64,000 nucleotides of DNA from Bacteroidia bacterium. GTDB lineage: Bacteria; Bacteroidota; Bacteroidia; UBA4408. The notes under the pieces were generated by a model. The model had not been told where the DNA came from and ran no database searches. It was given only the letters and a program-made list of their open reading frames with translations. The position numbers and the translations under genes were made by a program. Positions 1,145-24,241 of the stretch are shown piece after piece (the stretch's first letter is position 1; every line of letters starts with the position of its first letter). The stretch spans positions 23,416-87,415 of the forward strand of contig DAORJK010000013.1 of NCBI GenBank assembly GCA_035438985.1, read 5' to 3'.

Positions 1145-2680
1145 GTGAAAATTTCAAGGTCAGATAGGAAGATTGGCAAGTATGGCGGACTTGCTCCGAT
1201 TCATAAACGAATCGAGCAATGCCATATTCGCGAACTTATTCGTTCTGTTCTTGGAGAACGAGTTAAACAAGCCGAATATGGATTTGATGATACAATTTTA
1301 GGTTGGGGATTAAGTGCATTTTGTGGTGGAAAGCATCTTAATTATATAACGAAAATTGCTGATGAGTTGCAAATGCACAGAGGAATTAAAATTCCCAGTC
1401 ACGATACCTTAGGAAGAAGTTTTAAAAAATTGGCAGTGCCTAATAAACGTGTCAGAGTTGTTCAGAACGATGGTTTGAGTTTTACCTACCATAATGACAA
1501 CCCTCTTATGAATAGTCTCTTGTTTCGGATAACTAAAGCTATTGGGGCTCTGCAAGAAAATGTTTCCTATACATTGGACGTTGATCAAACATTTGTAAGT
1601 ACAGAGTGTCGAGGTGCATTTTTCCCCACAAAGGAAGAGGAGGAGAAGTTTGATAATGAAAATGCATTGCGAAAAAATCTACCAATTCTCAATTTAGATA
1701 AATTTCCGGATGTTAACCTTAAGAAAATTCCCAAGGAGAGAAGCGGAAAAATAGGATTTGCTCCTATGGTGGCTCTAATCGGGGCTTTACCGGTCAATAT
1801 AAGTTTAAGAAGTGGGAATGCAATGGCCAATTTTAGAATGCATGATTTTGTAAAAGATACCCTCGCCCTTGCTAAAGAATCCAACATTAAAATTGGAAGA
1901 TTCATAAGTGATGCAGCAGGATACTTATATAATACACTTGAATTTCTTCATAACCAAGAAATAAAGTTTCTTGTACGGTATACTTACAAAAAAACTAACA
2001 AGGAATTCGCAAGGACTTTTAAAGCTTGTAATAACTGGAGAAAAACTCGAATTAAAACAACAACGCAAACAATTGAATGCGAAGTAGGTGATGTACCATA
2101 TAAAATGTGGGATGACCCCCAAATTAAAAGAGCATATCCGTCTCCAACTTATAGAGTTGTCTTTGCAAGAAAACCGACTGAAGAAACTTTAAAAAGGATT
2201 GCACCGAAGGATTATGAAACTAAAGCTTCCGAAAAAGAAATGCAGGATCCATTCAAACGCCGCCAACTTTTGGAACAACCAGGAAACCCCAATGCAGAAT
2301 CATGGACCGAAATTGATGGATATAGATACAGCTTCATTATAACTAATGATTTTGAAAAATCAAGTGAAGACTTGATAATGGAATACAATAAAAGGGGGAA
2401 CGCAGAACGACAATTTTCGCATATGAAAAAAGACTTCGCCTGGAAGTATCCACCCTTTATGAAGATGGATGCCAATACAGTCTTTTTAATTGTTGCTGCA
2501 ATTAGCAATAATATTTTGAGAGGCACCAGAAATTGGTTAAAGAAACAGATACCTGAAATAGATTTGAAGGCCACCCTTGATGAATTCATTAACAAATTCA
2601 TAAGAATAGCTTTTGAGGTAATTGATGAAAATTATTACTTTTTTAATACCAAATATGCATTTGAAAAAATAAAATTCTAA
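1145..2680 (+). CDS. DDE transposase, IS4/IS1380-like
   Basis: 511-aa ORF with a GTG start. The N-terminus (GKYGGLAPIHKRIE..., ...YGFDDTILGWGLSAFCGGKHLN) and the C-terminal ...EYNKRGNAERQFSHMKKDF... look like IS1380/IS4-type DDE transposases. Only antisense junk ORFs overlap it. Element ends were not resolved. Confidence 0.7.
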   Translation: MKISRSDRKIGKYGGLAPIHKRIEQCHIRELIRSVLGERVKQAEYGFDDTILGWGLSAFCGGKHLNYITKIADELQMHRGIKIPSHDTLGRSFKKLAVPNKRVRVVQNDGLSFTYHNDNPLMNSLLFRITKAIGALQENVSYTLDVDQTFVSTECRGAFFPTKEEEEKFDNENALRKNLPILNLDKFPDVNLKKIPKERSGKIGFAPMVALIGALPVNISLRSGNAMANFRMHDFVKDTLALAKESNIKIGRFISDAAGYLYNTLEFLHNQEIKFLVRYTYKKTNKEFARTFKACNNWRKTRIKTTTQTIECEVGDVPYKMWDDPQIKRAYPSPTYRVVFARKPTEETLKRIAPKDYETKASEKEMQDPFKRRQLLEQPGNPNAESWTEIDGYRYSFIITNDFEKSSEDLIMEYNKRGNAERQFSHMKKDFAWKYPPFMKMDANTVFLIVAAISNNILRGTRNWLKKQIPEIDLKATLDEFINKFIRIAFEVIDENYYFFNTKYAFEKIKF

Positions 2681-2814: not shown

Positions 2815-2850
2815 AAAAGGAACAGATTGCTCTGTTCCTTTTCATTTTCA
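2815..2850. terminator. Hairpin flanked by A/T runs (possible bidirectional terminator)
   Basis: AAAAGGAACAG (2815-2825) pairs with CTGTTCCTTTT (2832-2842), with T-rich sequence on both sides. Confidence 0.4.
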
Positions 2851-3086
2851 TTGTTAATAATTTAGACCTGCGTAATTGAGGCTGAAAGTAAAGCCGGAGC
2901 AATTGGTTACTACAGAAATGCTTCCCTCACCGGAGGAAATTGACAAGGAGCTTATTCGGAAAGAGAAGAAGCGAAAAAGAGGATGAAAACCCTACAGAAT
3001 CTCGCCTATAATGCAGCACAATAGATATTAACAGTCTGGGTTTTGTAACCTTCTTAAGAATCATTTCGTTTTTACGTTTGATATTC

Positions 3087-3094
3087 TATATTTG
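3087..3094 (+). promoter_or_regulatory. Candidate Bacteroidota -7 promoter box (TAnnTTTG) for the 3142-5248 cassette
   Basis: TATATTTG lies about 48 nt upstream of the ATG at 3142. Confidence 0.35.
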
Positions 3095-3141
3095 CAGTGT
3101 AATTTCTCTAATGAGTTTTTATTAATCCCCTATTTCAAAAC

Positions 3142-3450
3142 ATGCTTCATTCGCATAGTGTAGAAAATGAAAAATTCGGTCTCTTTATTCTGTTTTTAAA
3201 TCACCTTTTAAGTGGCGAAAAGAAATATGAGGAAACCATTAATAATGTTTTGATTGAAACGCGTGCCCTGGTTAAAGGAGAGAAGGATGTATACACAGTC
3301 AATCGAGACACATTTCCAATAATTATTTACTTAAGCAAAAGGAATAAAACTTTTTTTGAAAGCCTGCCGAATACAAAATCTTTTGATAAACAAGTTTATA
3401 CAGATTTGTTTTCACTTCTTGACCGACAACGTCCAATTAGCATAATTTAG
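3142..3450 (+). CDS. Hypothetical protein (102 aa), first gene of the cassette
   Basis: ATG ORF whose stop is 3 nt before the next start (3454). No recognisable motif. Confidence 0.5.
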   Translation: MLHSHSVENEKFGLFILFLNHLLSGEKKYEETINNVLIETRALVKGEKDVYTVNRDTFPIIIYLSKRNKTFFESLPNTKSFDKQVYTDLFSLLDRQRPISII

Positions 3451-3453
3451 TGA

Positions 3454-4650
3454 ATGTCTCCGCGCCTTTTAGAACTTCACTTCTCTCAGTTAGCTAAGGC
3501 CTGGAATAAATCTCAGTATAACAACTACTCTGATAATAATAAAAAGCTTTACCACAATAAACTCGGAGATCTTTACCGGCTTTTAAAAACAGAAGACTTT
3601 TCCAGATTTTCCCAACAAGAAATTATGGAACGGTATGATGTTATTAATATGATTTTCAAAAGCCTGGAGTTTTTGGACAGCAGCACATTAAATCTTCTTC
3701 CCTTCGAAATTGTTACCTGTTTAGATTGTGCTTTAAGAGATTGGCTTCAAGGCGATGAAGAGTTGATTATTGTAACCTCTCTTGTTAACGATATTAATAA
3801 TTACAGCTTTGATGAATCTTTAGCAACGAATGAACAGTTATTTAAGTATGTCGAGCTCCAATATGGAGTAAAATTTGCATCCAGATTAATTCAAATAAAT
3901 CTTCCAGCAACATTATCAAGAGATTATTTGGCCAATGTCGTGCTTTATCATGAACTAGGGCATTTTATTGATACAAAGTACCAAATTTCAAGGGCCATTC
4001 ACGATGAAATTTTAGAGAAGCTTTTCGTAAAAAGAAAAATAACCCCTGAAGAAGAAAAAGAGTTAGCTGACTATTTCCCCTTTCTGGAAAATTACTTAGC
4101 CCTAGAGCCTTACTATAATAATCAAGGCGAAATAAAAGTATTGAGATATTATTTAGCTGAATATTTTTGTGACCTTTTCGCATCTCAATACATAAAAACC
4201 TGTTCGAGCCACTATTTACAATACCTGACTCAAGCATATGCTTCGCAACATAGCAACTCTCACCCATCAACAAAAAAAAGAGTAGAGCTTACAGAAAAAT
4301 TTTTATCCGGAGACGACAGCACGTTTACATTAAGCAAAATTAAGGAGGCAGTTAATAAAACAACAGCAGGTAAGAGTTTGTCAGTAAAGTTTGAAGAAAA
4401 GAAATCTAATGATTTCATCAAGCTTGTTCCTATAGATATTGAAAATGATAGCCAATTGCATTATTTATTTGTTCATGGCTGGGATCTCTGGTTGAATAAC
4501 TGGCACCTATTCGAGGAGCAAAACGAAATGAAATTCAAATTGGATCGAGAAAAGGTTTATGACATTGTAAATAGCTTAATAGAAAAATCTATTGGTAACT
4601 ATGTGGTTAAGACTAATTGGGATAAAGCGAAAGCCAATGTTTCTAAATAA
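3454..4650 (+). CDS. HExxH zincin metallopeptidase-like protein (M48-like/ImmA-like features), cytoplasmic
   Basis: Motifs in order are LYHELGHFID (HExxH), then AEYFCDLFASQY (E..D/A third-ligand-like helix), then SHPSTKKRVEL, which resembles the M48 'HPxxxxR' motif. No signal peptide or TM segments were seen. Confidence 0.65.
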   Translation: MSPRLLELHFSQLAKAWNKSQYNNYSDNNKKLYHNKLGDLYRLLKTEDFSRFSQQEIMERYDVINMIFKSLEFLDSSTLNLLPFEIVTCLDCALRDWLQGDEELIIVTSLVNDINNYSFDESLATNEQLFKYVELQYGVKFASRLIQINLPATLSRDYLANVVLYHELGHFIDTKYQISRAIHDEILEKLFVKRKITPEEEKELADYFPFLENYLALEPYYNNQGEIKVLRYYLAEYFCDLFASQYIKTCSSHYLQYLTQAYASQHSNSHPSTKKRVELTEKFLSGDDSTFTLSKIKEAVNKTTAGKSLSVKFEEKKSNDFIKLVPIDIENDSQLHYLFVHGWDLWLNNWHLFEEQNEMKFKLDREKVYDIVNSLIEKSIGNYVVKTNWDKAKANVSK

Positions 4651-5248
4651 GGGAGAAATAGAAAAACTTCTTAAAGAGGGAGAATTGATTATTAAGCCTC
4701 TCTTAGACACTAGTCAGGTCGGTGAAATATCTATAGATTTTAGGCTTGGTTATGATTTTTTGGTTTCTATTCAAGGCCGGGAGCCTTTTATTGATGCGTC
4801 TCTAAATAATGAAGACAGACATCCTATAAGTAGCTTTTTTCAAGAAACAAGAAGAAATATTGGAGAAACATTCTTACTACATCCTAATCAAACAGTTTTA
4901 ACAAGCAGTTTGGAATTTATAAAAATGCCCAGAGATGTTTTTGCTGTTTTAAATATGCGTAGTTCCTATGTTAGACTGGGGATAACAATTGCGACAATTA
5001 TTCAACCAGGTTATTGCGGTTGTATGTCCCTAGAGCTAACCAATACAAATAAAAATGCTGTAAACATGACGGTCGGTGCACCTATCATTCAGGCAAGATT
5101 GTATAGATTGTCTACGAAATCGAACTACTTCAGCAAACCTAGAAAATATATATGCCAAGTAAGGCCACAAATTTCTGCTGTAAATGACGATGGTGATTTA
5201 AAGATACTCCATCGCATTTGGGAGGAAAGCAATAATAAAATTACCTAG
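4637..5248 (+). CDS. dCTP deaminase / dUTPase-fold (Dcd-like) protein
   Basis: The preferred start is the ATG at 4637 (MFLNKGEIEKLLKEGELIIKP...), which overlaps the upstream stop (4648-4650) by 14 nt. Dcd-like motifs are SIDFRLG, NMRSSYVRLGI and QPGYCGCMSLELTN (compare E. coli DPGWSGCIVLEFYN). Confidence 0.75.
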   Translation: MFLNKGEIEKLLKEGELIIKPLLDTSQVGEISIDFRLGYDFLVSIQGREPFIDASLNNEDRHPISSFFQETRRNIGETFLLHPNQTVLTSSLEFIKMPRDVFAVLNMRSSYVRLGITIATIIQPGYCGCMSLELTNTNKNAVNMTVGAPIIQARLYRLSTKSNYFSKPRKYICQVRPQISAVNDDGDLKILHRIWEESNNKIT

Positions 5249-5266
5249 GGTTTGTTAGGTCACCCC

Positions 5267-6142
5267 TCACTTAAAAACAATTCTTGTTCGAGAATAGTTT
5301 TTCTCCCCAGTCGGCATAATTAATACAAAAGCATTGTATGTATTATAGAAATAATGATACTGAAAAGTAGTGACCCCCTCATGTGTTGCAAGACAACATT
5401 GTCCAATAGTATGAAACTTCTTTTTCTTCAAATAATCTTGGACAAACGTCCATTCAATCCCTAATGTTTTTTGCCAAGTTATTTCCCCGAATTCATTTGT
5501 AAAAGAAGTGGATTGAAAATAATTTCTCACCATACACCCCTCCACAATAAAGTGTTCCGGGTCTTTCAATACTAATAGTGCGCATCGTTTCGAAGAGTAC
5601 TCGACATATCGCCTTATAGCTGCATGTGTTGAAGAACCAAATAATTTTGAAAGGTACATAGGAGATTTTATCTCAAGTGGTAATTTCTGCATCTCCTCAT
5701 CAAATCTATCAAGTTGAAATAATGTAGCCGAGGCAAAATAATTTGCTTCTGCTTCGAATTCATCCTTTGTATCCGGGTCAATCGTACTATCATCATCTTC
5801 CATGTACTCAAACGTTTGACGTTGCCAAGGCAAGGCTTCATGACCAACTTCATGAAGTTGAATAAATTTTTTTCGAACATCTGGTTGATTGGGATCGATA
5901 TAAATTACCTTCTCTCTCCTATCCAAAGCTCCACGCCACTTCCGCAGAGCTCGCTTCAAAACCTCAGAAGTTCGAAGTAAATAATTCTTTGGAATTTTTG
6001 TAATATCAGTTTTCGTATCTACAACCAGTTGAGAATATCGAACAATATTTTCAACTGGTGTTGGAAATATGCCCAATGCCTTGCTTTGTTTCAGGAAATC
6101 CAATGATACAAGCTCTATATCTTTTCGGGAACCTTTTTTCAT
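5267..6142 (-). CDS. ImmA/IrrE-family (DUF955, M78) metallopeptidase
   Basis: Contains the HEVGHEALPW HExxH motif followed by EAEANYFASATL. Its start overlaps the upstream XRE stop in an ATGA (6139-6142). Confidence 0.8.
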   Translation of the reverse strand: MKKGSRKDIELVSLDFLKQSKALGIFPTPVENIVRYSQLVVDTKTDITKIPKNYLLRTSEVLKRALRKWRGALDRREKVIYIDPNQPDVRKKFIQLHEVGHEALPWQRQTFEYMEDDDSTIDPDTKDEFEAEANYFASATLFQLDRFDEEMQKLPLEIKSPMYLSKLFGSSTHAAIRRYVEYSSKRCALLVLKDPEHFIVEGCMVRNYFQSTSFTNEFGEITWQKTLGIEWTFVQDYLKKKKFHTIGQCCLATHEGVTTFQYHYFYNTYNAFVLIMPTGEKNYSRTRIVFK

Positions 6143-6525
6143 TTTTTGTTTTCCGAACGAATAAACTTCAAATAACTTATCAATACTTTTTCTTCTTCCG
6201 CTGAGAGATTTTCAGAGGAGAGAGCATATCCTCCCAATGAATGTGGCGCACTACCCTTACCAACAAAATTTTTAGTTCCATTTTCTACCAGAGGAGAATC
6301 AATGATGCCAGCATCTGTCAATAAGTGACTGAAATTTATTCCATAAAGGTTTGCTAATTTATAAAGAACGTTGGCTGAAGGCTTTTTTATTTTATCGTGC
6401 TCAAGCTGACTTAAATAAGCATTCGATATTTCAGTTACTTCCTCCACCTGTCTTAATGTATAGCCTTTGGTTAACCTGGCGTTTTTGAGCTCTTCGCCTA
6501 TTGTTTTTTTGGTTTTTGAAATCAT
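6139..6525 (-). CDS. XRE-family helix-turn-helix transcriptional regulator
   Basis: The N-terminal IGEELKNARLTKGYTLRQVEEVTEISNAYLSQLEHDK... is a typical HTH_3 domain. It is the first gene of the XRE-ImmA pair. Confidence 0.85.
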   Translation of the reverse strand: MISKTKKTIGEELKNARLTKGYTLRQVEEVTEISNAYLSQLEHDKIKKPSANVLYKLANLYGINFSHLLTDAGIIDSPLVENGTKNFVGKGSAPHSLGGYALSSENLSAEEEKVLISYLKFIRSENKK

Positions 6526-6554
6526 TTTTAGGCTGTGTTAATGAGAAATCGCTA

Positions 6555-6562
6555 CAAATATA
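6555..6562 (-). promoter_or_regulatory. Candidate -7 box (TATATTTG on the minus strand) for the XRE-ImmA operon
   Basis: Plus-strand CAAATATA reads TATATTTG on the minus strand, about 30 nt upstream of the XRE ATG (6525). Confidence 0.3.
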
Positions 6563-6591
6563 AAATAAAAATGCTCAAAATCACAAGCTTA

Positions 6592-6618
6592 GCTAAATTT
6601 TTGCTAAATTAATTTAGC
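6592..6618. promoter_or_regulatory. Candidate operator: GCTAAATT half-sites including a perfect 16-bp palindrome
   Basis: GCTAAATTAATTTAGC (6603-6618) is a perfect palindrome. An extra direct half-site GCTAAATT lies at 6592-6599. The site is in the divergent intergenic region between XRE and the Ubl operon. Confidence 0.45.
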
Positions 6619-6625
6619 GGCTCTA

Positions 6626-6633
6626 TAATTTTG
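6626..6633 (+). promoter_or_regulatory. Candidate -7 box (TAATTTTG) for the Ubl-E2-JAB-E1 operon
   Basis: Matches TAnnTTTG. It lies immediately downstream of the palindrome and about 73 nt upstream of the ATG at 6706. Confidence 0.35.
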
Positions 6634-6705
6634 CTTGATATATTTAAAATTGCTTCGTATCTTTGGCAAAAATTAATTATTAAACAATCTAAAAAAAACA
6701 AAAAA

Positions 6706-7203
6706 ATGAAAACAATTCAAATTTATTTACATGGTGAAGAAGCCCGTGAAACAAAGCTTGTAGAAGTTTCTACCGATGCAACTATCGCAGATATTATCAA
6801 TAAGTATCGCGAAGAAACAAACATGCAGGGGGCAAAGTTAGAAGAGATAGATCTCTATTTTGAGGATGAAGAACATCCTAAAGAAAAGGGGCATCACATT
6901 GAGCACGCTGGAATAAAAAAACGACACCATGTTCACTGCCATAGATGTCAAAAGGTAGCAATATCAATTGAATATAATGGTCAGGTTAAGAACATTAGTG
7001 TGCCACCTTCAGCAACCGGTGTTATGATTTTAAAAAAGTCTGCAAAGGAGTTTGGAATCACCGAAAAAGATGCATCTGACTTATTACTTAAATTACCTAA
7101 CGAAGAAGTTCTACAGAAGACAGACCATATTGGGTCATTTGTATCATTTCCACACTGCGAAATAAAACTTTTATTAATTCACAATAAACAGATACAAGGA
7201 TGA
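6706..7203 (+). CDS. bilA: Ubiquitin-like protein, apparently tandem beta-grasp (ISG15-like), ending in a free C-terminal Gly (BilA-like)
   Basis: The ATG at 6706 (MKTIQIYLHG...) is preferred over the TTG at 6631. There are two halves of about 80 aa, each starting with a beta-strand-like K.IQIYL / KVAISIEY. The protein ends ...NKQIQG-stop, and the stop overlaps the next ATG (ATGA at 7200-7203). The symbol is assigned from operon architecture only. Confidence 0.65.
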   Translation: MKTIQIYLHGEEARETKLVEVSTDATIADIINKYREETNMQGAKLEEIDLYFEDEEHPKEKGHHIEHAGIKKRHHVHCHRCQKVAISIEYNGQVKNISVPPSATGVMILKKSAKEFGITEKDASDLLLKLPNEEVLQKTDHIGSFVSFPHCEIKLLLIHNKQIQG

Positions 7204-7676
7204 GACCAGATTTGCAGATTTTTAATAAGCATATTGAAGATGCCGAATTTCAAATCGGGCTGGATAATGGCATGTGGGGGATTTCGGATGATAATCCGGA
7301 GCGCCCCACTTGGCCATATATTACTATATGGGTACAAGCAGCTGCCAAACTGAATGCCCCTAATAAATATCATTTCAGGTTCGACTTAAATGGCTATTCA
7401 GCAATTGCTCCAACAGCCTGTCCTTGGGATGTAAGTGCCAATAAGCGGTTACCAGACAATCTCTGGCCCTGCGGAAAGAACTTTGTATCCTCTGTTTTTA
7501 GACCTAGTTGGAATCCCAATGCGCTTTATGCTCCCTGTGATCGCTTGGCAATGGCAGGGCATGGAGATTGGCAAACAAGACACCCTGAATTGTGGTGGCA
7601 GCCAACATTTAAAATTGATAAATACTTGCACTATCTACACAGGCTTTTAAATTCTTCAGACTATGTTGACTCATAA
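7200..7676 (+). CDS. bilB: E2-like (UBC-fold) ubiquitin-conjugating enzyme homolog (BilB-like)
   Basis: 158 aa, sandwiched between the Ubl and JAB genes with coupled overlaps. WNPNALYAPC resembles the UBC HPN...C active-site context. The assignment rests mainly on position. Confidence 0.6.
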   Translation: MRPDLQIFNKHIEDAEFQIGLDNGMWGISDDNPERPTWPYITIWVQAAAKLNAPNKYHFRFDLNGYSAIAPTACPWDVSANKRLPDNLWPCGKNFVSSVFRPSWNPNALYAPCDRLAMAGHGDWQTRHPELWWQPTFKIDKYLHYLHRLLNSSDYVDS

Positions 7677-8148
7677 ATTAGAAATATCAGAAACACTTTG
7701 GGTTAAATTAGTTGGACAACTGAGAATCCGAGGTAAGGGAAAACGCGAAACAGGAGCCTTTTTACTTGGCCCTTTAGAAAAACCTACCATTACAAAATTC
7801 ATTTGTTATGATGAACTTGACCCTCATGCATTTGACTCTGGGATAATTGTTTTTAGTGGAGACGGATATATCCCATTATGGAAATATTGTCGTGAAAACA
7901 ATCTTCGGGTTTGGGCTGACGTTCATACCCATCCAGGAACTTGGACAGGCCAAAGTAAGGCAGATAAAGAGCACCCCATGATATCTCAAAAAGGTCACAT
8001 AGCCTTCATTGTTCCGAATTTTGCAAAAAACAAAAAGCAGAAATTCACAGGAGTTGGGATATATGAATACTTAGGCGACCATAAATGGAAAATATGGACC
8101 AGTAACTCTAGTATTATTAAGCTAATTGTAGAAAAAAATGAAAGATGA
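7663..8148 (+). CDS. bilC: JAB/JAMM (MPN+) metalloprotease, deubiquitinase-like (BilC-like)
   Basis: Exact JAMM motif: the upstream Glu in KRETGAFLLG, then HTHPGTWTGQSKAD, which is H-x-H-x7-S-x2-D. The start overlaps the E2 gene by 14 nt. Confidence 0.85.
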   Translation: MLTHKLEISETLWVKLVGQLRIRGKGKRETGAFLLGPLEKPTITKFICYDELDPHAFDSGIIVFSGDGYIPLWKYCRENNLRVWADVHTHPGTWTGQSKADKEHPMISQKGHIAFIVPNFAKNKKQKFTGVGIYEYLGDHKWKIWTSNSSIIKLIVEKNER

Positions 8149-9511
8149 AATCACAGAAAATAACTTTAATCGCTTAGCCATTTGCATAATGACAAAACAT
8201 CGTTGTTCTTACGATGAAGCAATGGATAAGTTATGCGAACTAAAGTTAAATATAGTATGTGGAAGTGCGATAGGAAATTCTATTCCCTTACAAGCAGCAC
8301 TATTAACCGCTGTCAATACAGGGAAGCGTGCATTTTTAGGGGGCATATTTATTACAATCCCTGAGGATGTCAACACTTTGATCCCTTGGCCAAATAGCAC
8401 CTACTTAAATGACATAATAGTTGAACTAGGGGGACAAATAGTACAGAAACCTGTAGACGGAGTTTTTTCTCTAAAATTAGGTCTTTCAGCAAGTATTGAA
8501 GAAAACTCTTTAGAGGTTATTTGTAATAGTTGGCAAGGAGGCTTTTCAAACGGTGATAGTGATATTCGTTTGTTAGAAAGTAATAATATTCCTCTGGGAG
8601 GTATTGCTGCAGGAGCGCTGGGGGTTGGAACAGCTTTTCTTAGATTAACCAACATACAAGTTTCTGCAGGAGATGTATCAACAGGAATTTCTCTCTGGCG
8701 ACCGGACTTAGGCTGGCTTGATTATGAAGCAAATGGACCGGAGGTAATATTCCTACCGGAAAAATTTTGGTTACTTGGTTTAGGGCACTTAGGTCAAGCA
8801 TACTTATGGAACATAGCTTTTCTTCCTTATCCAGACTCTTCACAGATATCAATTCTTCTGCAGGACTATGATAAGATGTCGGTGGCCAATTTAAGTGCCG
8901 GACTAATCTGTGAAGAGGAAAATGATAAACAATTCAAGACTCGAATATGCAGCAATTGGCTCGAAGAGAGGGGTTTTAAAACCATTATATCAGAAAGAAA
9001 ATTTGATGAATCAACTAAATGTAATAGTAGTGAGCCATTAATTGCTTTATGTGGGTTTGATTCAGCCGTTTCGAGATTACATCTGGAAGATGCAGGGTTT
9101 GATTTGATTGTAGAAGCAGCTCTTGGTGGAAATTTATCATTGTTTGATAATATTATTTTACACACTTTCCCTAATGCACGTAAATCTCCAAAAGTAATTT
9201 GGGGAAATCTAAATTTTACTGACCAAGAGATTAATTCTGTTGTACTTGAAAAATTCTCGCATCTGAAAGAAAATGAATGTGGGATTATTGCTCAAACTCT
9301 TGCTAGTAAAGCAATTTCTACAGCTTTCGTAGGAGCGTTAGCAGGAGCGCTTGCAATTGCTGAATTATTGAGGGCATTAAACGGAGGCAAGAGATATGAT
9401 TTGATTGTCGCTCAAATGCGATCTTTGCAATATAAGAATGCCTCAATTCATAAAAATGAATCCTATAGTTCTGAAATGGCAAGAAACGGATTTGTTTCTA
9501 GTAAATGTTAA
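8138..9511 (+). CDS. bilD: E1-like ThiF/MoeB-family adenylating enzyme (BilD-like)
   Basis: Rossmann loop LLGLGHLGQAY followed by ILLQDYDKMSVANLSAG (compare the E1 'D.D.V..SNL.RQ' motif). 457 aa with an N-terminal extra domain. The start overlaps the JAB gene by 11 nt. Confidence 0.8.
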   Translation: MKDEITENNFNRLAICIMTKHRCSYDEAMDKLCELKLNIVCGSAIGNSIPLQAALLTAVNTGKRAFLGGIFITIPEDVNTLIPWPNSTYLNDIIVELGGQIVQKPVDGVFSLKLGLSASIEENSLEVICNSWQGGFSNGDSDIRLLESNNIPLGGIAAGALGVGTAFLRLTNIQVSAGDVSTGISLWRPDLGWLDYEANGPEVIFLPEKFWLLGLGHLGQAYLWNIAFLPYPDSSQISILLQDYDKMSVANLSAGLICEEENDKQFKTRICSNWLEERGFKTIISERKFDESTKCNSSEPLIALCGFDSAVSRLHLEDAGFDLIVEAALGGNLSLFDNIILHTFPNARKSPKVIWGNLNFTDQEINSVVLEKFSHLKENECGIIAQTLASKAISTAFVGALAGALAIAELLRALNGGKRYDLIVAQMRSLQYKNASIHKNESYSSEMARNGFVSSKC

Positions 9512-9571
9512 CCATTTTATTTTCCAGAAATTAATTATTTTTCGAAACAGTCTATTTAAAAGTTAAAAAAT

Positions 9572-10315
9572 ATGAAACGTAAAGCTATAGTAATTGGTGC
9601 TCCTGGAGGGGTTAAAAATGAATATTTAGAAGGTGTTCAATACGATTTCAAGAATTACATAAACTTCTTAAAATCACCAACGGGTGGTGCATGGGATTCG
9701 AGTGAAATTATCCCAGTAATGAATCCGAGCTCAATAAAGCTAAAGAACTACTTAAAAAACTTAAAGGTGGATTACACATTGGTGATATTTTCAGGTCATG
9801 GGGCCTATCAAATTGGTGATAGTACATATATTGCAGTGAACAGGACCGATTTAATTTCAGTCAATGAGCTAGTTACAAAATCGCCAAAACAATTGCTTAT
9901 CATAGATGCCTGTAGAAGTTTCATCGATAGTGGTATTTCTGGATTCTTAGAAGAGGAAGCTAAAAAATTTCCCTCAAAACTAAGCAGGATTGAGGGAAAA
10001 AGAATTTTTAAGTATCAGCTAGATAAATGTGAAAATGGACTGGTCGTTTGTTTTTCATCTATAATTGGTCAAAGTTCATACAGTAAAAATGACGGTGGTT
10101 TGTTTTCACTTAGCTTATTAGATACTGCCAAATCATGGGTTTTAACGCCTAGCAGGTTTGGTATATTGCCGATACAAACAGCCTTTACAAGAGCGAAAAA
10201 TTATACAATTCAAAAAACAAGAGGTATACAAGTGCCTGAACTTAAGGCATCCAATATTAAAAAAAGAACTACATGGTTTCCATTTGCCATAAGAAAACCT
10301 ATACAATCAGTTTAA
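9572..10315 (+). CDS. Caspase-like cysteine protease (peptidase C14 fold), stand-alone 247 aa
   Basis: N-terminal strand KAIVIGAPGG. The His-Cys dyad sits in canonical contexts: VIFSGHGAYQ (H76) and LLIIDACRSF (C114). It lies 60 nt downstream of the E1 stop on the same strand, with no obvious terminator between. Confidence 0.8.
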   Translation: MKRKAIVIGAPGGVKNEYLEGVQYDFKNYINFLKSPTGGAWDSSEIIPVMNPSSIKLKNYLKNLKVDYTLVIFSGHGAYQIGDSTYIAVNRTDLISVNELVTKSPKQLLIIDACRSFIDSGISGFLEEEAKKFPSKLSRIEGKRIFKYQLDKCENGLVVCFSSIIGQSSYSKNDGGLFSLSLLDTAKSWVLTPSRFGILPIQTAFTRAKNYTIQKTRGIQVPELKASNIKKRTTWFPFAIRKPIQSV

Positions 10316-20469: not shown

Positions 20470-21468
20470 CTACCTTACCAAACTTTCTTTCGTTTTCACA
20501 TTTCTGGTTCGTGTCTTGGTTAACTCGTCCTTTTTTTTTGTAATTTCTTCAACTTTAGGTATTGAGGTAACAAAAACATTTTTGATTTCTTTTTCAATCG
20601 TTCTTTCATTTAAAATATAATCCACAGCCTTTTGCGCTTGCCCACTAGCATGAACAATAAATTTCTTGTCTTTCTTTAATTTTTCAAGCCAGTGTTGTAT
20701 GTATGCAATGTTATCCTCAAAGTTTTGATGTGGTATTCCAGTATAAGATTTAAGATATGATGCGCCCATTTCAGCGGTAAGTTCTTCAATAGCATAATCC
20801 CTTGTTTGTGGGCCTTTTTGTTCAAGTAATTCCTTTCTGTTAAGCCTTTCACTGTGTCCGGTTGCGTGAACCAATTCATGGAAAAGTGTTCCGTAATATC
20901 TTTCAATACTAACAAAAGAATCAAGCTTTGGCATATTCACATAGTCTTCTCCTGTGTGGTAAAACGCTCTTTGTTCATTGTGCTGAATGATTGGTTTCTT
21001 CGGCATTTCATTGATAACTTTTTCACACGCTTCAATTGGATTGTTCTGTCTTTCTTCCTTAACTGGTAATTTTTCTTTTGGTATTCCTGTGCATTGATCA
21101 ATATTAAAAACTGTATAGTACTTGAGTAATGGAGTTTTCTTAACCTCTTTTGTTTTTTCATCTTCCTTTTCAAGCCACTTCCAAAAAACCACTAGTTGTG
21201 ACTTTTCTCCTTTCTTTACAGAGCCTCCCAATTCTTTAATTTGATTGAAAGTCAGGAAATAGTTTTGGGAATAATTCAATGAATTTAATAGCCAAACGTT
21301 GATTCCTTTGTAAGGCTTCTTAGAAACTAAATTTCTTGGTAATCCTGAATCTGTCCATGGTTGTTGCCATGGAACAATTTTCTTTTCAAGTTTTTCTATG
21401 ATGTGATTGGTAACTATTTGATATATATCTTTAGTTGTGTTTGGTTGATTTTGTTGAGTATTAGTCAT
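20470..21468 (-). CDS. ardC: ArdC-like antirestriction protein (N-terminal ssDNA-binding DUF1738 plus C-terminal zincin)
   Basis: N-terminal ...VPWQQPW...PYKGINVWLL... and C-terminal HELVHATGH HExxH motif. Confidence 0.75.
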   Translation of the reverse strand: MTNTQQNQPNTTKDIYQIVTNHIIEKLEKKIVPWQQPWTDSGLPRNLVSKKPYKGINVWLLNSLNYSQNYFLTFNQIKELGGSVKKGEKSQLVVFWKWLEKEDEKTKEVKKTPLLKYYTVFNIDQCTGIPKEKLPVKEERQNNPIEACEKVINEMPKKPIIQHNEQRAFYHTGEDYVNMPKLDSFVSIERYYGTLFHELVHATGHSERLNRKELLEQKGPQTRDYAIEELTAEMGASYLKSYTGIPHQNFEDNIAYIQHWLEKLKKDKKFIVHASGQAQKAVDYILNERTIEKEIKNVFVTSIPKVEEITKKKDELTKTRTRNVKTKESLVR

Positions 21469-21479
21469 AATTTTAAATA

Positions 21480-22325
21480 TTAACGATTAATGTTTCGCAC
21501 TCTGTCTTTAGAGTTGCCTCTTAATTCCCTTAATTCCTTTTGCTTGTTGTGTATGATGTTTAGCATTTCAATTCTGTCCTCTGTAAACCCAATTCGGTTG
21601 AATCGAAATTTGTTTCTTCCAAAGATTATTCCTGTTGTTTTTCCTCCTCTGTCGTAGGTTTTCAGACCGCATTCATTTAGTAATTGATAAAAAGTATCTC
21701 TTGAATTCGCTTTCTTGTAGCAAGTTTTGAGCATTCCAATTACTTGCTCCTTTTCTGTATCTCTTCCAGTTCTTAACTTGTAGTTATATTCCCTATCGCT
21801 AGCTTTTCCCCTTTCTCTTTTACCATGCGCAACAATTGATTTTGATAATTCCGGAAAATGTTCAATCTGATAATTCTGAATTTCTTTCTTAAGTTTTCCA
21901 AAATCTGATTTGGACATTCGCATTGCTTTTCCTGCTCTGTATTCGACACCGGAAGCGCAGATATGAATGTGGTAATGTTCTTTGTCGAAGTGTGGAACTG
22001 CAATATACATTCCTTTGGGATTTCTTTTCTGAATGTATTCCCTTGCCATTTCCTGCATCTTGTCTAAGGAAATGTTCTTTGCATCATCTCTGTGCCAAGA
22101 GAGTATCTCATGGGTGAGAATTACAGAATCCTTTCTTTTTCGTAAACGATGTGTTTCATTTTCTTTAAACTGGTTCACCCATTTTTCAATATCATCTCCT
22201 TTTAAATTGTGTGTCAGAACAAAGCTTTTATCCTTTTCATCAAATAGTCGAGCATTGTCATGGAGCATATACTCCAGTAGTTTCTTAAAGCTTGGTCGCT
22301 TAAAGGATTTTACTTTGACAATCAT
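21480..22325 (-). CDS. Relaxase / mobilization nuclease (MobA/VirD2-type)
   Basis: The N-terminal ...FKKLLEYMLHD is a catalytic Tyr region, and PHFDKEHYHIHI is the His triad (H.D...H.H). The ATG at 22325 is preferred over the ORF-track start at 22334. Confidence 0.8.
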   Translation of the reverse strand: MIVKVKSFKRPSFKKLLEYMLHDNARLFDEKDKSFVLTHNLKGDDIEKWVNQFKENETHRLRKRKDSVILTHEILSWHRDDAKNISLDKMQEMAREYIQKRNPKGMYIAVPHFDKEHYHIHICASGVEYRAGKAMRMSKSDFGKLKKEIQNYQIEHFPELSKSIVAHGKRERGKASDREYNYKLRTGRDTEKEQVIGMLKTCYKKANSRDTFYQLLNECGLKTYDRGGKTTGIIFGRNKFRFNRIGFTEDRIEMLNIIHNKQKELRELRGNSKDRVRNINR

Positions 22326-22803
22326 TTTGAGCAAGTGGTGGGTTTCTAAAAACCTGATTTAATTTTTCTTCTAATCGAATAATTATTTTCTCAATGCTCT
22401 CAAACTTCTGATCTCGCTCCCAATGATATTTCTCCCTCGTTTTTACAATGCTCTGAATCTGATTTAAACATTCTGAAAGGATTTGCTCTAAATGCACAAT
22501 TTGTTCTGAATTTGGAACGATATAGCTTTGGTTGAGGTAAGACATTACAGCGGAGCGAATAAAGGCGGTAATTGTCATTTTATGCCTATTCGCTGCATGC
22601 TCAACTTTACTGTATTCACCATTCTCATTTGAGAAGTTGACCGTAAACTCCGGTTTATGATTGCGCTGATTCTGCTTGTATTTCAAAAGGTACTCCTTGC
22701 GGTAAGCAAGTTTTGCTGCCTTTATTTCCGCATCAGTTCCCTTTTCAAGAACTCCCGTTGCTTCTAAATATTCCCACAGTCCGTTATTGTTCCTTTTGCT
22801 CAT
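22300..22803 (-). CDS. MobC-like relaxosome accessory protein
   Basis: EFTVNFSNENGEYSKVEHAANRHKMTITAFIRSAVMSYL is an RHH-like segment, followed by LEQILSECLNQIQSIV (compare the MobC 'NLNQIAR' motif). It overlaps both neighbouring genes. Confidence 0.6.
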   Translation of the reverse strand: MSKRNNNGLWEYLEATGVLEKGTDAEIKAAKLAYRKEYLLKYKQNQRNHKPEFTVNFSNENGEYSKVEHAANRHKMTITAFIRSAVMSYLNQSYIVPNSEQIVHLEQILSECLNQIQSIVKTREKYHWERDQKFESIEKIIIRLEEKLNQVFRNPPLAQNDCQSKIL

Positions 22804-24241
22804 TTGCTTTTTGCTTTAGGGGTAAAACGGGAATGCTTTCAGTTGCTAGTTGGCCGATAATCTCTGGTGCTTCGATGTTGCTGTAGTCTTTAAATTTCGA
22901 TTGTCGGTAGTAAGGTTTAAGTCTCGCCAATATGGGTTGATGATGTCCACAAATTAGAATTGCTTGAGTATCTTTCATGGTTCTGATTTCATCATTTGTC
23001 ATGAGTGGTCGAACTACAGTTCTTTCCTTTTCATCTTTGTATTCATACCTTCCTAATGTTTGTTCCAATTCCTTTGCTGTTTCTAAGGATGTTCCGGTGA
23101 AATACATTTTTGCAAAACAGTTGGATTTAATTGCATCTGCATTGTTTTTTCCATAGTGATTTACCAGTTGATTAAAATCTTGTACCAAGAGCATGATTCC
23201 TGAGCGGTGCTTTCTGACATTGGCAACTGCTAATGATAGCGTTGGAAGGTAGAGTGATGATGCTTCATCAATTAGCAAGAAAATATCCTTCTCACTCTCT
23301 GAGGGAAAGCGTGAAAGAAGGAAAGCAAAGAATTGTTCGAAGAAAAGTGAGGTTAATACAGAGTAATATTTTTGGTCTGCTACCGAATTTTGTATGAACA
23401 ATGCTGTTGGTTTGTTTCTAAACTCAATTAGGTCAAGATTGTCTGTTGATGTAACTTTTGCAATAGATTCATCATTGAAAAGTTGAAGCGCAGCTTTGCA
23501 AGTGGCAATGACTCCACTTACAACTTTGTCATCATAAGCGATAAAGGATTTGTATTCTGCAAACAGAATTTCATCTGCATGTTCTGAAAACAAGGCATCT
23601 ACTGATTCTGGATTCCCTCCTAATCTGTTTAAGAGTTGCCTTACATTGTAAAGATTCTGAAATTCTGGTGCTTGCTTTTTTAGGATAGTGATAAGCATGG
23701 CAAGCAATGATGTTGCCTGAGAATTCCAAAATGGATCTTTGCTTTTTCCTCCTAATGCATTTTCAATTAAGAGAGAAGCAACCTTCTGAATATCCGATGA
23801 GCTTTGCGCTCTGACAAGTGGATTGTAACCCGAAGAATTATTCGGATTAGAAAAGTTCAGTACTTTGATTTCATGGCCTTTCTGCTTTAAATATCCTGCA
23901 CTTTTTGAAAAAAGCTCACCCGAAGGATCGTGAATGACAAAACTTCCCTTCATTGTGTATAGTGATGGAAAGAGCACCACGCTTGATTTTCCAGTACCAG
24001 TTCCTCCAATTATGAGTGAATTCTGATACGAATTTTTAACTGATAAATTTCTTCTTCCTGTGAGACAGAAGCCATATTCTCTGCTTGATAGCAGAGTTCT
24101 AGCACTTACAAATTCCGCATTGTAGCTATCCTTCTTTTTAGGAATAGCAGTCCAAGCGAATTGTATAAACTCGAAGATTCCTTTGAAAATACTTTCTAGA
24201 AGTTTTATGAAGAGTATGAGGAGTTGTTCTATGATTTTCAT
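22784..24241 (-). CDS. Type IV secretion coupling protein (TraG/VirD4-like)
   Basis: Walker A IIGGTGTGKSS, Walker B FLLIDEAS, and an N-terminal hydrophobic segment. Confidence 0.85.
   Translation of the reverse strand: MKIIEQLLILFIKLLESIFKGIFEFIQFAWTAIPKKKDSYNAEFVSARTLLSSREYGFCLTGRRNLSVKNSYQNSLIIGGTGTGKSSVVLFPSLYTMKGSFVIHDPSGELFSKSAGYLKQKGHEIKVLNFSNPNNSSGYNPLVRAQSSSDIQKVASLLIENALGGKSKDPFWNSQATSLLAMLITILKKQAPEFQNLYNVRQLLNRLGGNPESVDALFSEHADEILFAEYKSFIAYDDKVVSGVIATCKAALQLFNDESIAKVTSTDNLDLIEFRNKPTALFIQNSVADQKYYSVLTSLFFEQFFAFLLSRFPSESEKDIFLLIDEASSLYLPTLSLAVANVRKHRSGIMLLVQDFNQLVNHYGKNNADAIKSNCFAKMYFTGTSLETAKELEQTLGRYEYKDEKERTVVRPLMTNDEIRTMKDTQAILICGHHQPILARLKPYYRQSKFKDYSNIEAPEIIGQLATESIPVLPLKQKANEQKEQ

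Follow-up and report, generated by a model that had tools for sequence, protein, structure and literature searches.

Type I bacterial ISG15-like (Bil) systems are the one family with both a demonstrated anti-phage activity and a demonstrated phage target, and that of Collimonas sp. OK412 encodes a two-domain ubiquitin-like protein (Ubl) ending in glycine (Hor et al., bioRxiv 10.1101/2023.09.04.556158). In the same work, the substitutions G163L, C385A in the E1, C113A in the E2 and D115A in the deubiquitinase (DUB) each abolish defence. Type II (CEHH/6C) systems, such as that of Ensifer aridi, usually have a one-domain Ubl with a tail after the glycine that is trimmed by BilC (Chambers et al., PMC10557695). 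Here we present an analysis of a 64,000-nucleotide (nt) stretch of DNA from a Bacteroidia bacterium (GenBank assembly GCA_035438985.1, contig DAORJK010000013.1, positions 23,416 to 87,415), hereafter the window, in which positions 5267-9511 very probably encode all of a type I BilABCD anti-phage system and, beside it, a pair of CapH/CapP-type regulators. An earlier reading made from the letters alone (the sequence-only reading) had proposed a Bil-type defence module at this place, and our analysis supports that proposal through PADLOC matches, residues, folds and gene order.

The window operon closely parallels the Collimonas sp. OK412 type I system (Millman et al. 2022; Hor et al.) in its Ubl-E2-JAB-E1 gene order and in a two-domain BilA of about 165 amino acids (aa), with key residues that pair (Collimonas/window) as G163/G165, E2 C113/C113, E1 C385/C381 and JAMM D115/D101. 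It differs in belonging to Bacteroidota and in carrying a divergent CapH/CapP-like pair. Our assignment to type I was made because the Ubl has two domains and a terminal glycine and because the CEHH motif is absent. The type II system of Ensifer aridi TW10 (PDB 8TYX, 8TYZ, 8TZ0) shares the gene order, the folds and an aligned JAMM motif, but identity in the structural alignments is 12-14%, the glycine of the window protein is already terminal and BilB lacks the Glu and His of CEHH. A type II assignment was rejected on the absence of CEHH, on the two-domain, glycine-terminated BilA and on PDB sequence searches with BilA, BilB and BilD that miss the 8TYZ and 8TZ0 chains. Bub (6E/DUF6527) and the type II CBASS Cap2/Cap3 system were rejected as well, since the E1, E2 and JAB genes are separate and neither DUF6527 nor CD-NTase was found in the neighbouring open reading frames (ORFs).

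Beyond bacteria, the closest parallel is the eukaryotic ISG15 pathway (UBA7/UBE1L, UBE2L6, ISG15, USP18), which has in common with Bil a modifier resembling di-ubiquitin, an E1 and an E2 dedicated to it, a deconjugating enzyme and an antiviral role, the last of these assigned to the window system by homology. Bil systems in turn have no E3, a JAMM peptidase in place of a USP and a much smaller E1 without a ubiquitin-fold domain (UFD), and the likeness is one of analogy and deep homology rather than orthology.

Gene layout, folds and catalytic residues of the Bil operon

The four bil genes lie on the same strand and overlap at every junction, through an ATGA at 7200-7203 (4 nt) seen in the sequence and through 14 nt at 7663-7676 and 11 nt at 8138-8148 given by the coordinates, and all three overlaps described in the sequence-only reading were recovered. 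Defence-system hidden Markov models, which that reading had put forward as a check, call each protein: the PADLOC models for BilA, BilB, BilC and BilD match over the full length of protein and model (E-values 1.5e-38, 1.9e-51, 3.3e-57 and 1.5e-132), with BilA residues 1-165 on positions 1-162 of the 162-position model. Models for the four Bil proteins were not found in NCBIfam, and in our local Pfam copy BilD had no match and BilA and BilC matched weakly; the newer Pfam families BilA_UBL_2, BilB-like and BilD_N are annotated on the proteins of relatives with 97% and 67% identity. The GC content over the operon is 0.36, against 0.34-0.37 nearby, with no composition anomaly. All four proteins are Bil family members, and every catalytic residue of the cascade is present.

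Conservation was assessed by extracting and aligning bilA-D from 80 genome loci that a BilD profile had retrieved (60 BilA, 73 BilB and 75 BilC homologues); the protein collection holds at least 1,456 BilD homologues. About 75 loci, spread over Bacteroidota, Verrucomicrobiota, Actinomycetota and Proteobacteria, retain the order bilA-B-C-D. Where individual related loci have to be told apart we cite them by L numbers: contigs L001-L003 are 97% identical to the window, and L004 is the nearest genome relative, with 67% identity in BilD.

For the first gene, the sequence-only reading had given a length of about 166 aa and two halves of beta-grasp size. The two halves are upheld, as residues 4-121 align, in a profile of the BilA family, with two consecutive units of poly-/di-ubiquitin (E = 2e-7 to 5e-4), the tandem beta-grasp arrangement that had been expected; local Pfam adds weak matches to Rad60-SLD (residues 4-56) and TUG-UBL1 (88-126), and a single-sequence PDB search with BilA gave no meaningful match. 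The length needs correction to 165 aa, counted from the ATG at 6706. The mechanical ORF opens at a TTG at 6631 and would give 190 aa, and we prefer the ATG because the homologues and the BilA model fit the shorter length. Gly165 is the exposed C-terminus of the protein; the glycine column is 100% conserved, and it is the last residue in 55 of 60 homologues.

The BilA alignment also contains four near-invariant residues, H77 (54 of 60), C81 (59 of 60), H141 (49 of 60) and C151 (60 of 60), set in the context HVHCHRC ... HIGS ... PHC around the linker and the second Ubl domain (6934-6948, 7126-7158). These residues may form a His2Cys2 metal site, mention of which was not found in the Bil literature examined.

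BilB is matched by the Pfam family DUF7665/BilB-like at 6.9e-42. PDB searches with the single BilB sequence and with a BilB family profile found nothing meaningful, and fold prediction was therefore needed. The AlphaFold2 model (pLDDT 95.7) is of UBC/UEV type, in agreement with the UBC fold anticipated for this gene; its top Foldseek match is the solved type II BilB E2 chain 8tz0_C, followed by UEV1a, Mms2 and Ube2N, with probabilities of 0.99-1.00. Cys113, in WNPNALYAPC, is the predicted catalytic residue, and it sits in a conserved context of W104, A108-L-Y110-x-P112-C113-D114-R115 and H121, the last of which is invariant in the family. The sequence reads C113-DRLAMAG-H121, without the CEHH Glu/His pair, and C113 aligns to the YxPCDR cysteine with a number identical to that of Collimonas C113. 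The sequence-only reading had likened a WNPN-x5-C stretch to the HPN...C active site of UBC enzymes; the stretch is present, but its WNPN/HPN likeness is not a family property, with N105 found in 29/73, P106 in 12/73 and N107 in 14/73 homologues.

The family alignment of BilB yielded what we consider the most interesting by-product of this work, which lies outside the window and merits a separate study. The catalytic-cysteine column holds Cys in only 37 of 73 related loci. Throughout whole clades its place is taken by Trp, Tyr, Leu, Phe or Val, and 11 of these BilB proteins are cysteine-free (observed for the bilB gene directly 5' of the BilD match in loci L034, L037, L039, L040, L043, L045-L047, L049-L051, L055-L057, L060, L061, L063-L066, L069-L072, L074, L077, L079-L084 and L086). 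In these operons BilD Cys381, the terminal glycine of BilA and the JAMM residues of BilC are still invariant, and a search of the Cys-less BilB proteins for a compensating conserved nucleophile found none. This pattern suggests that many Bil-like operons have UEV-like E2 partners that would be incapable of thioester formation.

In BilC, the JAMM residues read E29...H88-T-H90-PGTWTGQ-S98-KA-D101, and all five are 100% conserved in the 75 homologues; the exact motif earlier picked out in the third gene is thus present and invariant. A weak sequence match to the solved BilC chain 8tyx_B spans the HxH...S..D motif, and the local Pfam match is a weak Prok-JAB.

BilD carries the ThiF/E1 signature noticed in the earlier reading, with GLGHLG at 214-219 and QDYDKMSVANLS, and its active adenylation domain contains D243, K267, R269, D308 and R313; the N-terminal adenylation domain is inactive. 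GLGHLG, D308, R313 and Cys381 are 100% conserved in the related-locus alignment. Cys381 is the sole invariant cysteine, lies in a helical region after the adenylation domain, is close in number to C385 of the Collimonas E1 and is predicted to be catalytic. The AlphaFold2 model (pLDDT 94.5) retrieves with Foldseek the solved BilD E1 chains 8tyz_A and 8tz0_A over its whole length (E about 1e-19, TMq 0.64-0.68), followed by UBA7, UBA6 and UBA1, with UBA7 (8oif_A) as the top non-bacterial structural match. This full-length agreement bears out the expectation of an E1 with one inactive and one active adenylation domain. A single-sequence PDB search with BilD did not find the solved type II chains, and its matches to histidine acid phosphatase (E about 2e-3) were dismissed as spurious.

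The structure of BilD also bears on whether the locus could be a sulfur-carrier or cofactor module (MoeB/ThiF with MoaD/ThiS) or another prokaryotic Ubl system (type II Bil, Bub/6E or type II CBASS Cap2/Cap3), to which we assign almost no probability. An E1 adenylation fold and a Gly-terminated beta-grasp protein are common to all these systems, and ThiF and MccB do occur among the distant Foldseek matches of BilD. Those matches are confined to the adenylation core, however, with ThiF covering about a third of BilD (TMq 0.35), whereas two-domain E1s align to it over the full length. A search of about 10 kb to each side found no moa, moe or thi genes, nor were CD-NTase or DUF6527 genes found in the neighbourhood, and a MoeB/ThiF-MoaD/ThiS system was rejected on the absence of cofactor genes nearby and on the partial ThiF coverage. 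The operon has its own dedicated E2 as well as a JAMM peptidase, each type I PADLOC model is matched over its full length, sequence searches miss the solved type II chains save for the weak BilC match, and BilB lacks the CEHH spacing. This alternative is effectively refuted already. The sequence-only reading had named other folds, or an E1 grouping with MoeB/ThiF, as what would speak against a Bil system; we found beta-grasp and UBC folds and an E1 that sides with canonical E1s.

The CapH/CapP-type pair and the divergent intergenic region

In the CBASS model, CapP stimulated by single-stranded DNA (ssDNA) cleaves the repressor CapH, and the pair responds to DNA damage (Lau et al., bioRxiv 10.1101/2022.04.27.489752). 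Divergent upstream capH/capP genes also occur in 15% of type II Bil operons (Chambers et al., PMC10557695). In the window, capP is matched by Pfam Peptidase_M78 (4e-11) and PADLOC capP (1.6e-20), and capH by Pfam HTH_19 (8e-13) and HTH_3 (1.4e-10) and by PADLOC capH (9e-10). The two genes resemble those of Lau et al. in combining an XRE helix-turn-helix (HTH) protein with an M78 HExxH peptidase, in overlapping and in diverging from the defence operon; they differ in a CapP of 291 aa with a divergent C-terminal half and in a putative operator that is unrelated. By its sequence, the window pair is a CapH/CapP-type arrangement.

Homologues of capP adjoin Bil in L001, L004, L018, L019, L033, L041, L065 and L081, and the HTH/M78 pair is kept with Bil in L001, L004, L005/L007, L018, L019, L033, L041 and others, with variable genes on its far side: the gene beyond capP is a dCTP deaminase in the window and L004 and HEPN_AbiV in L005. 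Across 59 loci, the first divergent ORF upstream of bilA carries HTH_3 in 23 cases and is an HTH-M78 fusion in 7, and 21 of the 59 cluster with the window CapH by BLAST.

The 180-nt region between capH and bilA is 89% conserved among the window, L001 and L004. It contains a perfect 16-nt palindrome, GCTAAATTAATTTAGC, at 6603-6618, TTGCTAA/TTGCTTG repeats spaced 30 nt (6593-6616, 6623-6646), with similar 30-nt-spaced TGCT repeats in L004 and L018, and a conserved TAnnTTTG element, TATCTTTG, at about 6657-6664, about 40 nt 5' of the bilA ATG. A generic sigma-70 promoter and terminator scan did not rise above shuffled background and is uninformative for Bacteroidota.

Other Bil loci show other regulators at this position. 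CapH is absent, and another conserved divergent ORF is found, in L009-L012, L015, L016, L023, L027, L030, L034, L037, L040, L042 and L043; divergent non-CapH ORFs, seen in many Chitinophagaceae and Verrucomicrobiota Bil loci, are 195-223 aa long, fall into several BLAST clusters, have no Pfam match and may be alternative regulators or partners. A fused HTH-M78 regulator of 363-461 aa occurs in L087 (344-1435), L088 (123-1214), L060, L062, L069, L071, L072, L074 and L080. It lies upstream of and co-directional with bilA in the two Bacteroidota contigs (L087, L088) and is divergent in the genome-scan loci (Candidatus Poriferisodalis, Acidimicrobiia/Acidimicrobiales, Neoroseomonas).

Proposed conjugation mechanism and its weighing

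How the window system may operate can be framed by its homology with the system of Collimonas sp. OK412 (Hor et al.) and with the Ensifer aridi structures (Chambers et al.). BilD would adenylate the exposed C-terminal Gly165 of BilA and take it up as a thioester on Cys381, from which BilA would be handed on to Cys113 of BilB and then joined to lysine residues of a structural protein of the phage, plausibly yielding defective, poorly infectious virions. In the Collimonas model the conjugation target is the central tail fibre, and virion assembly and infectivity are impaired (Hor et al., bioRxiv 10.1101/2023.09.04.556158). BilC would reverse or edit BilA conjugates and is presumably needed for function. 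Upstream of this cascade, and following the CapH/CapP model of Lau et al., CapH may repress the divergent bil promoter through the repeats of the 180-nt region, and ssDNA or DNA damage may activate CapP, so that cleavage of CapH would raise bil expression.

Several points weigh against this reading of the locus as a type I Bil defence system under CapH/CapP-type control. The two beta-grasp domains of BilA are predicted from profile matches, and the TM-scores of the BilB model in Foldseek are moderate (about 0.5). The palindrome, the repeats and the TAnnTTTG element are candidate CapH operators and a candidate Bacteroidota-type promoter, proposed on their patterns. The expected phage phenotype and target protein come by extrapolation from a single proteobacterial system, which was expressed in E. 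coli. Finally, co-transcription of a downstream caspase-like gene with bilD is possible because the 60-nt gap between these same-strand genes contains no recognisable terminator.

The regulator pair and the surroundings of the operon could also be taken to mean that conjugation serves mainly a DNA-damage or stress response, or competition among mobile elements, with host or element proteins modified upon CapP activation. We regard this as improbable. It draws on the CapH/CapP-like control, which is DNA-damage-responsive in the model system, on a relaxase, a coupling protein, ArdC and an insertion sequence (IS) nearby together with related loci beside integrases, relaxases and type IV secretion system (T4SS) genes, and on a literature that leaves non-defence roles open for the related Bub and type II systems. 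Type I Bil is nevertheless the family in which anti-phage activity and a phage target have been demonstrated, and the neighbours of the relatives are typical defence genes, including restriction-modification (RM), TIR, SIR2 and HEPN/Abi genes.

Read as a type I Bil defence system, the operon is a well-preserved Bacteroidota example with a CapH/CapP-type switch near conjugative-transfer genes, and it could be a useful candidate for testing, outside Proteobacteria, how Bil functions and how specific it is for its targets. It leaves existing knowledge unchanged; all four genes are already picked up by current defence-finder models and by recent Pfam families, and the operon is an ordinary further case of the already described Bil anti-phage family.

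Genomic neighbourhood and the downstream caspase-like gene

The positions of the genes discussed here are given in Table 1. The mobilisation module of ArdC, relaxase and coupling protein lies about 11 kb from the Bil operon, and the genes downstream of the caspase-like gene encode unannotated, CHAP-domain, SprB-repeat and type IX secretion system (T9SS)-sorted proteins. Both the T9SS sorting domains and the nearest relatives assign the window to Bacteroidota. The DNA around the operon is variable and rich in defence genes, and conjugative-transfer genes lie nearby. The description of the locus as a mobile island is plausible in view of the IS, ArdC, the relaxase and the type IV coupling protein. 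To call the gene context unusual was an overstatement, as the HTH and M78 genes are of the known CapH/CapP type and the caspase is not a conserved partner of Bil.

Table 1. Features of the window discussed in the text
Feature	Position	Strand	Description
IS-type DDE transposase	1145-2680		upstream of Bil
hyp102, hyp398, dCTP deaminase	3142-5248	+	three-gene cluster, convergent with capP
capP-like	5267-6142	-	M78 (IrrE/ImmA-type) zinc metallopeptidase, 291 aa, HEVGH at residues 97-101
capH-like	6139-6525	-	XRE-family HTH repressor, 128 aa, 4-nt overlap with capP, divergent from bilA
Candidate divergent promoter/operator region	6526-6705	.	180 nt between capH and bilA
bilA	6706-7203	+	ubiquitin-like protein, 165 aa, ends ...NKQIQG
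bilB	7200-7676	+	E2-like (UBC/UEV fold) protein, 158 aa
bilC	7663-8148	+	JAB/JAMM metallopeptidase (deubiquitinase-like), 161 aa
bilD	8138-9511	+	E1-like activating enzyme, 457 aa
Caspase-like	9572-10315	+	Peptidase_C14 protein, 247 aa, His76 in SGHG, Cys114 in DAC
ArdC-like	20470-21468	-	anti-restriction/zincin protein
Relaxase	21480-22334	-	MobA/VirD2-type
Coupling protein	22784-24241	-	type IV

A 7.3-kb block of the window, 2975-10315 (hyp102 to caspase), is 96.8% identical to positions 2838-10178 of the metagenome contig L001, stops exactly at the caspase stop codon and has unrelated flanks on both sides; on the left, the flank is the IS-type DDE transposase in the window and an HTH gene in L001. 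A search for terminal repeats bounding the block found only chance-level matches in AT-rich DNA. One interpretation of the whole of 2975-10315 (hyp102, hyp398, dCTP deaminase, capP, capH, bilABCD and caspase) is a single composite, co-regulated defence cassette, in which the caspase would be read through from bilD and act on or with BilA conjugates and the dCTP-deaminase pair would form a linked second arm; we consider this quite improbable. We take both the caspase-like gene and the cluster with the dCTP deaminase to be, most likely, neighbours that are independent of Bil.

The caspase-like gene itself (Pfam Peptidase_C14, 5.4e-11) raises the narrower possibility of a five-gene Bil variant, in which a co-transcribed caspase would, for instance, be the effector, provide a second deconjugase or cleave targets tagged with BilA. 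Its same-strand position behind a short gap with no terminator-like site, the end of the L001-shared block at its stop codon and the presence in L005/L007 of a different cysteine protease (Peptidase_C70/C39_2) 54 nt after bilD can all be cited for such a variant, which we hold to be very improbable. Only contigs L001-L003, at 97% identity, have the caspase next to Bil; it is absent from L004 and from the other surveyed loci (about 75), where the gene after bilD is heterogeneous and includes RM subunits, kinases, TIR, SIR2 and others. Five further contexts, those of caspase homologues with 39-74% identity, were inspected and none has Bil nearby, and the characterised Bil system requires four genes only (Hor et al.). 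On the survey of downstream genes and these five contexts, the caspase was rejected as a conserved fifth Bil gene, and it is probably outside the Bil system. The contexts of its homologues are mostly defence-island-like, with NACHT/PIN, pPIWI and UvrD, toxin-antitoxin or ParA-like genes.

Two minor observations concern the remainder of the shared block. A 20-nt segment 5' of the caspase ATG, at 9520-9539 (TTTTCCAGAAATTAATTATT), is 85% identical to 6662-6681 (TTTGGCAAAAATTAATTATT), 5' of the bilA ATG; this likeness is probably due to chance in AT-rich DNA, though it could reflect a shared regulatory element. At the other end of the block, the dCTP deaminase is matched by TIGR02274 (118 bits, above cutoff) and Pfam DCD (1e-27), and searches of Pfam, PADLOC and NCBIfam with hyp398 found no match. 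The pair of hyp398 and dCTP deaminase also adjoins Bil in L004 (85-89% identity) and, in opposite orientation, in the distant L045 (37-53%), and it may constitute an uncharacterised nucleotide-depletion defence pair that PADLOC does not recognise.

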